Of a stretch of DNA of 64,000 bases, positions 3,022-36,099 are shown in pieces. Made by a program: the position numbers and the translations under genes. The first letter of the stretch is position 1; each line of letters starts with the position of its first letter. The DNA is taken from positions 284,952,001-285,016,000 of the forward strand of contig OZ024741.1 of NCBI GenBank assembly GCA_964016885.1. The letters run 5' to 3'. Under the pieces are notes generated by a model that saw only the letters and a list, made by a program, of their open reading frames with translations, was not told the origin of the DNA and ran no database searches. Source of the stretch: Eledone cirrhosa (taxonomy: Eukaryota).

Positions 3022-3082
3022 TTTCATTCTGATGATTGAAAGCAAAATTTGTTTGCTTTCAAGAAACCACTGGTAAATGAAA
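3022..3082 (+). ncRNA. Type I hammerhead ribozyme
   Basis: Stem I TTTCATT/AATGAAA; core CTGATGA; stem II TTGAAAGCAAA/TTTGCTTTCAA; GAAAC-CACTG-GTA (GUA triplet). Confidence 0.88.
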
Positions 3083-33813: not shown

Positions 33814-33875
33814 TTCGAACTCGTGTGCTCCTTCTCCACATTTTATAATTATATATATATCTATATCTATATATA

Positions 33876-33961
<86 letters not shown>

Positions 33962-33965
<4 letters not shown>

Positions 33966-34788
33966 TGTGGTTGTCTGTCTGTCTATCGATTTTTGGCACA
34001 CATCTCCTCTTAGAATCTCTCACGGAATTGCACCGAAATTGCTATACTTGTACATTGAGCCCTAGCGAAGACATCGGAAAAAAAAATTTCAAATTGACCC
34101 ACCCTATGTGACGAAATCGAATATAATGTATCGATTTTTGAGCGTAAGTGATCAGTTATTTCCCTTTGTTCTGTTTACATTGAGCGTCTTACGTAAAAAA
34201 TTACGCTGGCTTTAACAGTTGTCGAGCCAGCAAAATATTGACCTGCAAAATTCATCAGTTCGAACACTAAACTTCCGTTTTGCTTCATTTCCATTTAAAA
34301 GCATTTTAAAACAATATTTTTACTTGAAAACAAGCCTATTTAAAGACTACGTAAAACAAGCAAATATTTCGTCGTTAGGCGTTCAGACAGACAGTCGTGC
34401 AGACAGACAGTCGTGCAGAGAGGTGATATAGGCGTGCAGACAGATAGTCGTGCAGAGAGGTGATATAGGCGTGCAGACAGACATAACTGATAATTTGGTT
34501 ACGCTAATGTTTTTCTCTGCGTTGCAGTGTTTACATTTTCGATCTTTGTTAATAAATAACCAGTGCAGTTTCTATCCCCAGCATCCTCTTTTGTTATAAC
34601 ATTCGGGTTATCGTTATGTTTTCTTAACTTCATAAGGCATATTGTTGGTTGAGGGAATATTAATCAAAAACACCACATGCAAGTCTGCACAGTAGACACT
34701 ACAGTTTTTAAGCCAAGAAAGAAACTTAACATTGTAACTTTAACACAGCTACTGAGCGACCCCGAGCAACGCCGGGCTTTACTGCTAG
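33962..34788 (+). mobile_element. Non-autonomous Helitron
   Basis: 3' hairpin CCCGAGCAACGCCGGG followed by CTAG|T; 5' GTCTGTCTGTCT and CACCGAAATT motifs; the uninterrupted copy of the right flank (near 35375) shows an A^T target. Confidence 0.8.
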
Positions 34789-34789
34789 T

Positions 34790-35675
34790 ACATTATAAAG
34801 AAAGAAGAAACATTAGATATAATTAATAAGATATACCATACCCAAATTCCTTCACTACTCCTCGACTACGTAGTTTCGTGGCATATTATGCAAAAACACT
34901 ACATCACAGAGATACAGTATTTTTGTGAGGTTTGCCGACTTATCAAGAGGATACCTCATTTAGAGTTTCAAAACACATCCGTAGGACGCGAGATAGAATC
35001 CCGAAAGGCGGAGGGGGAGTCAATCACGTGATACAGCGGTCAAGAAACAGAGCAAAGCCTCTTACAACCAAGAAAAAATACCACAAAAGGCGGCAGGGGT
35101 ATTTATATCAAAGCCGTAGAAGAGATGGCTAGGATGGCGAGAAGTATAAGTAATGATAGCTTTCCAGCAATCACTACACTTCAATGGTTACTCTACCATA
35201 TGGAGTTATAAACAATATAAAGAAATACACAGATACATGCGTACACATACATATACATGAATATATCCACATATATCCCTGAATTTGTGGTGCCAACCTC
35301 AACCGTTGTTGCTCTTTGAATAACTGGGACAAAATAATCCAAATGGATTAGATTGATTCAGTATCAGAGCTATATAATACATTATAAAGAAAGAAGAAAC
35401 AATAAGATATACCATACCCAAATTCCTTCATTACTCCTCGTAGTCGAGGAGTAATGAAGGAATTTGGGTGTGGTATATCTTATTAATTATATCTAATGTT
35501 TCTTTTTTCTTTATAATGTATTATATAGCTCTGATACTGAATCAATCTAATCCATTCGGATTATTTTGTCCCAGTTATTCAAAGAGCAACAACGGTTGAG
35601 GTTGGCACCACAAATTCAGGGATATATGTGGATATATTCATGTATATGTATGTGTTCGCATGTATCTTTGTATTT

Positions 35676-35683
<8 letters not shown>
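34790..35683 (-). mobile_element. ORF-less retrozyme-like unit R2 with terminal redundancy and a fold-back (arms 35215-35440 and 35445-35683)
   Basis: Minus-strand hammerhead 34859-34951: TCCTC-TTGATAA-long stem II-GAAAC-TACGTA-GTC-GAGGA; 34790-34864 is repeated at 35379-35440. Confidence 0.7.
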
Positions 35684-35744
<61 letters not shown>

Positions 35745-36099
35745 CATACATACATACATACATACATACATACATACATACATACATACATACATACATA
35801 CATACATACATACATACAAGCATACATACAAATAGGGTTGGATAATGGCGTTGTTTATACAAAACAGGAAACGGCGTGGTGGGAATTGAATTATTTGTTT
35901 TGGAAAGCGGATTTGATGATTCTTTGGTTGATTAATTTGTGTTACCCACACAGCTGATTACTATGATTAATTAAGGAAGGTAATGAGAGTTGTAGCACAT
36001 GTTTGGTAATTAAAGAATATGGGAATGGAGGTGGAACTATGTGTAAGTTGGGGCGCGATATAATTTGATGAATATTGCTCTCATCACAACACAGGGCAT

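Follow-up and report, generated by a model that had tools for sequence, protein, structure and literature searches.

The closest described counterparts of the element discussed here are the non-LTR retrozymes of animals (Cervera & de la Pena, 2020, PMC7229834; Li, Clavereau & Pollet, 2026, 10.64898/2026.07.22.740005), which form circles and for which the synthesis of tandem cDNA by Penelope-like proteins has been proposed. These retrozymes are non-coding and low in GC, carry one type I hammerhead per unit, and are dispersed as monomers to multimers beside Penelope-like elements; in all these respects, the family described below is like them.

A second set of resemblances is to the EN+ Penelope-like elements. 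These occur as 5'-truncated partial tandems with an inverted, 5'-truncated copy at the 5' end and a tail at one end (Arkhipova et al., 2013, PMC3846280; Craig et al., 2021, PMC8557442), and they share with our family AT-rich or (TA)n targets, microhomology joints, and a hammerhead with a bulged stem II and a palindromic stem III, this last feature being regarded as a mark of dimer-dependent cleavage (PMC4209133). An AT-rich target is nicked on each of its strands by Penelope-type proteins, and reverse transcription begins internally, at two sites (Frangieh et al., 2024, PMC11167929); we liken these two start sites to the paired 3' ends found here. Head-to-head palindromes among such elements have been read as the result of self-priming on antisense RNA (PMC3846280). 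Finally, hammerheads in which a U3-A8 pair takes the place of C3-G8 exist naturally and are active in vitro (Perreault et al., 2011, PMC3088659), and one is found in the Penelope-like element Cercyon of Schistosoma (PMC4209133).

The window, by which we mean the whole stretch of 64,000 nt analysed (Eledone cirrhosa, contig OZ024741.1, positions 284,952,001 to 285,016,000) from a genome of 3.0 Gb, contains an element that joins the animal non-LTR retrozymes: its family has a predicted type I hammerhead in each unit, tandem units with at least two complete ribozymes in some copies, and no coding capacity. The unit, at 589–591 nt, compares with 170–400 nt (PMC7229834) or 51–972 nt (10.64898/2026.07.22.740005) in the published surveys, and the family appears to be set apart from the retrozymes described there by its U3-A8 core, its head-to-head arms and 3' ends that are fixed, paired and set in (TA)n. 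Unlike EN+ Penelope-like elements, it has no ORF, its tail measures 164 nt rather than 30–40 nt, and the homology between pseudo-LTR and autonomous partner is represented by no more than a low-complexity match to the one family compared. A literature search covering main texts and a few subscription papers yielded no description of head-to-head twin arms in retrozymes, and a search of similar reach for twin priming in Penelope elements yielded nothing relevant.

Our overall reading, which we consider quite probable, is that the hammerhead repeat in the window, a non-coding unit of 589 nt in its family, is present as two arms joined head to head, that it probably entered a (TA)n tract in the Penelope manner, and that the position of its apex is likely to be due to chance.

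The window copy and its hammerhead

The layout of the copy is given in Table 1, in which unit position 1 is the G directly after the GTC triplet of the hammerhead. A preliminary description had it that a unit beginning after this triplet is followed about 575 nt later by the full ribozyme and by a repeat of some 75 nt, and measurement bears this out. The monomer is shorter than the family unit of 589 nt, the first pass of this copy lacking 13 nt. The two arms show 92–97% complementarity, far above chance, and each is about 98% identical to the majority of its subfamily. The short arm starts 6–7 nt upstream of the cut, and at its other end (35683) it runs into (TA)n. The suggestion that no ORF is evident likewise holds, as no frame inside the element exceeds 66 aa (longer ones extend into the microsatellite), and no reverse transcriptase or GIY-YIG ORF of an autonomous Penelope-like element lies within it; a coding element was thus rejected. 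There is only one ribozyme in the copy, the upstream one being absent, so that a monomer would not be released by double cleavage and the copy is likely to be a dead end.

Table 1. Layout of the retrozyme copy and its immediate neighbours (coordinates of the window)
Feature	Position	Strand	Remarks
Helitron-like non-autonomous insert (presumed)	33860..34788	+	5' TC; 3' hairpin 34761–34776 plus CTAG; left boundary approximate
Long arm	34789..35440	-	Unit 589/1, one whole unit, on to position 75; 3' end of the short type ('position 82')
Repeat of unit positions 1–75 after the ribozyme	34789..34863	-	
Type I hammerhead motif (predicted)	34859..34951	-	U3-A8 core, palindromic stem III
One monomer, cut site to cut site	34864..35439 (C of GTC to G1)	-	576 nt
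Head-to-head junction	35434..35451	.	2-nt CG overlap 35439–35440; loop TAGT 35441–35444 on the GTC triplet
Short inverted arm	35439..35683	+	Unit 583 to about 238–246; long 'position 246' type 3' end
Right-hand target	35680..35830	.	(TA)n, then (TACA)n microsatellite

The long arm is interrupted in its last bases by an insert which, from its TC, hairpin and CTAG terminal signatures, we take to be Helitron-like, and which arrived later than the retrozyme copy, near the long arm's 3' end. The 3' end of this element has at least 2,110 exact matches genome-wide, with a preference for AT-rich sites having TAAA or TATA some 6–10 nt downstream; the same site in the retrozyme is occupied in three of the 100 Helitron-like copies listed, and at one locus (L067) two different Helitron-like families are found there.

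The hammerhead was located by a dedicated descriptor scan. An Rfam scan (E ≤ 1) gave no hammerhead among the matches listed (150 of 213), only microsatellite-driven miRNA matches. Stem I comprises 5 bp (TCCTC, 34951–34947, with GAGGA, 34863–34859), the core consists of TTGATAA (34946–34940) and GAAA (34877–34874), stem II is bulged, of 6 bp, and carries a long inserted hairpin, and stem III (34874–34865) is palindromic, with the predicted cut between 34864 and 34863. When constrained to the ribozyme fold, the sequence has a predicted energy of -23.8, against -24.9 when free, a difference of about 1 kcal/mol.

The preliminary description had called this core degenerate, and had looked to copies with an intact CTGATGA core as a check. 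In TTGATAA, U3 would pair with A8, and this core is present in 37 of the 44 motif matches in the first 30 loci and in 99 of the 100 matches listed of 6,724 to the genome-wide pattern; CTGATGA was found neither among the 44 nor among the 100. Since TTGATAA is the norm of the family, and since covariants of this class are reported to be active (PMC3088659, PMC4209133), the absence of CTGATGA is no valid argument against the ribozyme, and degeneracy can be ruled out: to judge from its sequence, the core of this retrozyme family is a compensated U3-A8 variant and not a decayed one. The compensation is that of the natural variants and of Cercyon, with the difference that a high-copy family has become fixed for it.

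There is some indication of constraint on the RNA as a whole. Compared with 30 shuffles, the circular fold of sense monomers gives z scores of -5.2 (window) and -4.7 (young subfamily, see below), those of the antisense being -3.9 and -0.2, respectively, and, when ten copies are compared, both partners have changed in five of the 45 predicted pairs. The sense-fold scores and the two-sided changes would suggest selection at the RNA level. In the old subfamily, the 20 nt around the cut are 95–99% conserved, and the most variable stretch is unit 6–15 (window 34858–34849), just 3' of stem I. The window also contains a second, unrelated type I hammerhead motif (3022–3082, + strand) with a canonical CTGATGA core, and a similar motif is present at another locus (L139).

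Paired arms and two fixed 3' ends

The family comprises an old subfamily, to which the window copy belongs (represented by no fewer than 215 exact occurrences of a 26-mer), and a younger sister subfamily with a unit of 591 nt, to which most of the listed matches to the TTGATAA pattern belong. Units of 589 or 591 nt are arranged in tandem, up to five per arm, and two arms are joined head to head in 111 of 156 old-subfamily loci and, as 25 pairs, in 48 young loci. The 3' ends of the arms are fixed at unit position 82 or 246, that is, 164 nt apart, and run into (TA)n.

After removal of three duplicate or mis-tiled loci and of arms with under 84% identity, 105 old pairs were available, of which 66 have one 82-end and one 246-end, six have two 82-ends, one has two 246-ends, and 32 have a non-canonical end. 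Among canonical pairs, therefore, ends are opposite in 66 of 73 in the old subfamily and in 22 of 22 in the young (22 of all 25 young pairs, with no same-end pair). Three of the six same-end pairs (L016, L046, L192) turn out to be 246-arms split by a Helitron-like insert. Insertions with identical breakpoints (L214; L039/L040; L155/L156) are probably segmental or tandem duplications, and were counted once.

The arms of a pair are often not nested one within the other: in 29 of the 66 opposite-ended pairs, each arm contains at least 20 nt that are missing from its partner, and ten pairs share nothing. Because sequence is private to each arm in both directions, the inversion is better explained by two separate primings than by one fold-back, a pure form of which is excluded for many pairs; for the same reason, two primings seem to us more likely than the antisense-RNA self-priming proposed for Penelope-like palindromes (PMC3846280). 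At the 105 joints, the arms overlap by 1–7 nt in 60 cases and by more in two, while ten joints are blunt and 33 contain filler. In the 72 filler-free joints the overlap averages 2.5 nt, against 0.7 nt at random, a value somewhat inflated by mismatch-tolerant extension. Tight apexes (within 8 nt) are found in four of the 25 young pairs (P = 0.003), at local palindromes and in two cases with a CG overlap; for the old subfamily, apexes close to symmetry are in no excess (5 of 104, P = 0.33).

How might such pairs arise? We suggest that the reverse transcriptase and endonuclease of a Penelope-type element would be borrowed for insertion into a (TA)n tract, and that both nicked target strands would then prime cDNA on the same template, one at each start site (82 or 246), in a form of twin priming. 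The two cDNA 3' ends would be joined by 1–7 nt of microhomology (CG in the window copy), some joints perhaps forming by tight snap-back at local palindromes.

A comparable layout is seen in an autonomous element of the same genome, with a 713-aa frame, which also lies in (TA)n and has two 3' ends, about 88 nt apart; the ends are opposite in six of seven two-strand loci (read by eye). The 713-aa protein gave no match in a Pfam search, and its nearest Atlas clusters carry GIY-YIG and RVT_1. This is a young, high-copy family (L113:1345-3486 and L113-L141), in which a sequence that may be a variant hammerhead core (CAGAAGA...GAAA) precedes the short end. It is one Penelope-like family of many, and, compared with the retrozyme unit from its copy beside L028, it showed only low-complexity similarity and no convincing homology. 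At three places, retrozyme arms are fused in the same sense to Penelope-like pieces of at least two families (L029:2508-2870, L170:543-1647, L087:1649-2370); these chimeras could be template switches or later deletions between neighbours.

Template for the tandem arms

Young arms extend to 2,907 nt, or about five units, with a stop rate that is roughly even along the unit, and all 101 crossings of the cut are without a scar (partly by ascertainment). Variants private to an insertion are informative here. In the 33 young loci where more than 100 positions are covered more than once, 39 rare variants occur in every pass, 74 in one pass and a single one in a subset of passes; of the 39, 19 are present on both arms and 13 extend over three to eight passes (up to eight of eight). 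An example is L241 (G000:C1:50594600-50601400), a young insertion of five plus three units head to head, in which six rare variants are common to all seven or eight passes. Old-subfamily copies with at least three passes are less clean, with 49 single-pass, three subset and one all-pass variant.

The all-pass variants are as expected if each insertion was copied from one monomer sequence, as would happen by rolling round a circle, and on balance we lean towards a single monomer copied repeatedly, probably a circle made by the ribozyme. The same variant pattern would be given by a homogeneous linear multimer or by precise template jumping.

A different view of the tandems is that an autonomous Penelope-like element is represented here by its solo pseudo-LTR, or that the unit descends from a linear tandem master, with linear multimers or later expansion in place of a circle and a ribozyme that rarely cuts. 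This accords with the poor cleavage of Penelope-like element ribozymes (PMC4209133), with the cleavage of only one of nine Xenopus dimers (10.64898/2026.07.22.740005), and with the fact that old-subfamily arms are shorter than two units. However, there is no shared upstream ORF among the solo-arm flanks listed, variants confined to a subset of passes are nearly absent (one, against 39 in all passes), unlike the outcome of stepwise expansion, and the private variants cross the inversion. We therefore regard this view as unlikely, while giving it more weight than the other alternatives considered below.

The cut site and the turn-around

The hairpin loop of the window copy does sit on the cleavage triplet, as the preliminary description had noted. 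The further proposal, that the copy records reverse transcription of a ribozyme-processed monomer or circle with turn-around of the strand at the cleaved 5' end, fares less evenly: a retroposed, ribozyme-bearing, non-coding unit, with a monomer or circle as its likely template, is upheld, but turn-around at the cleaved end as the mechanism of the family is not. Across the family, arms read through the cut site, and inversion breakpoints plotted relative to the NUH site are spread over the unit with no concentration at the cut. In an unbiased old-subfamily sample (136 loci and 212 arms, the loci being obtained by exact anchors on contigs C1–C7), five of the 164 arms that reach the first cut stop within 3 nt of it (3.8 expected, P = 0.33), and none of 11 stops at the second. 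The 48 young loci provide 101 encounters with the cut and no stop there (one, L226, is borderline), against an expectation of 1.0. Among 181 of the 214 genome-wide anchor matches, about seven of 39 breaks (read by eye, with three duplicates merged) lie within 6 of the 50 nt round the cut, where 4.7 were expected. Exact genome-wide patterns for tight apexes matched one place at the cut and two and four at control sites (one control match may not belong to the family), and the apex pattern of the window itself matched five places, the window being the only family copy among them. In the single young pair with a tight apex at the cut, one arm also ends exactly there, an observation that tells in favour of the cleaved end.

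Could the template nevertheless have been a linear RNA cleaved by the ribozyme, with reverse transcription proceeding to the 5'-OH end at position 1 and turning there? The long arm in the window begins exactly at 589/1, and some observations on other old copies point the same way. Nineteen old arms extend as far as the upstream cut; four of them stop at 589–4, namely that of the window and those of L002, L006 and L008, the other 15 passing it; leaving the window aside, three of 18 long arms stop at 1–4, where about 0.4 (from the mean hazard) or 1.3 (from the local hazard, by hand) would be expected. A separate calculation on 13 arms reaching the upstream cut gave P = 0.004. The arms of L002, L006 and L008 came from a search favouring long arms. 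There is also a hot zone for second-pass stops in the old subfamily at positions 26–77, inside the upstream cut (13 against 4.4 expected, and three against 0.3, in bins chosen post hoc), and no old arm is longer than 1,012 nt. From the cut stops, the hot zone and the limited arm length, it may be that some old insertions had as template a linear RNA whose end lay close to the upstream cut, the three of 18 being a weak residual hint in favour of the cleaved-end idea. A stall after one full round, judged by length, is suggested neither in the young subfamily (two stops against 2.2 expected, and one against 1.7) nor clearly in the 246-arms of the old (six against 2.9, P = 0.08).

Against the cleaved linear template stand the lack of any excess at the cut in the unbiased samples, the arms that pass the upstream cut, the independent priming of the arms, and the insertion of a Penelope-like element in vitro with no need for cleavage (PMC11167929). 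For the window copy there is a more direct argument against the turn-around: 6 nt that lie upstream of the cut are included in the short arm, and these could not have been templated by a cleaved end. Such a template seems to us a doubtful one, and less probable than a pseudo-LTR or linear master; at most, it might hold for the long arm of the window copy, with no true fold-back. The position of the apex is more likely to reflect chance and local CG complementarity than an RNA end, the CG join adjoining two local palindromes that would merely happen to flank the cut.

That the palindrome is an artefact of assembly or of long-read fold-back, or a later DNA rearrangement, is very improbable, since, although contigs from three runs of one sample covering the stretch include no listed piece that spans the apex (and no joints are listed), the arms differ at five sites and by the 13-nt deletion while having a rare variant in common (position 137), end at different canonical 3' positions, and follow the same asymmetric layout as more than 100 other loci, and an assembly artefact was rejected on these grounds.

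Returning to twin priming on a circle, the full scheme would have a Penelope-type enzyme copy one ribozyme-made circle round and round from both cut strands of (TA)n, with the work obligatorily divided between start sites separated by 164 nt, and with a minority of older insertions perhaps still templated on the cleaved linear form; taken as a whole, we hold this to be evenly poised between right and wrong.

As a single locus, the window copy is ordinary, and its most striking feature is likely to be due to chance. The interest lies in the thousands of young copies, whose fixed start sites, reading through of the cut and insertion-wide private variants make it possible to approach the copying of retrozymes statistically, and in which a U3-A8 hammerhead appears to be kept at high copy number together with a predicted strand-specific RNA structure. 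The same family statistics bear on the origin of Penelope-type inversions and tails. If the scheme is correct, the life cycle proposed for retrozymes would be united with the so far unexplained inversion and tail of Penelope elements under one testable mechanism of twin priming.
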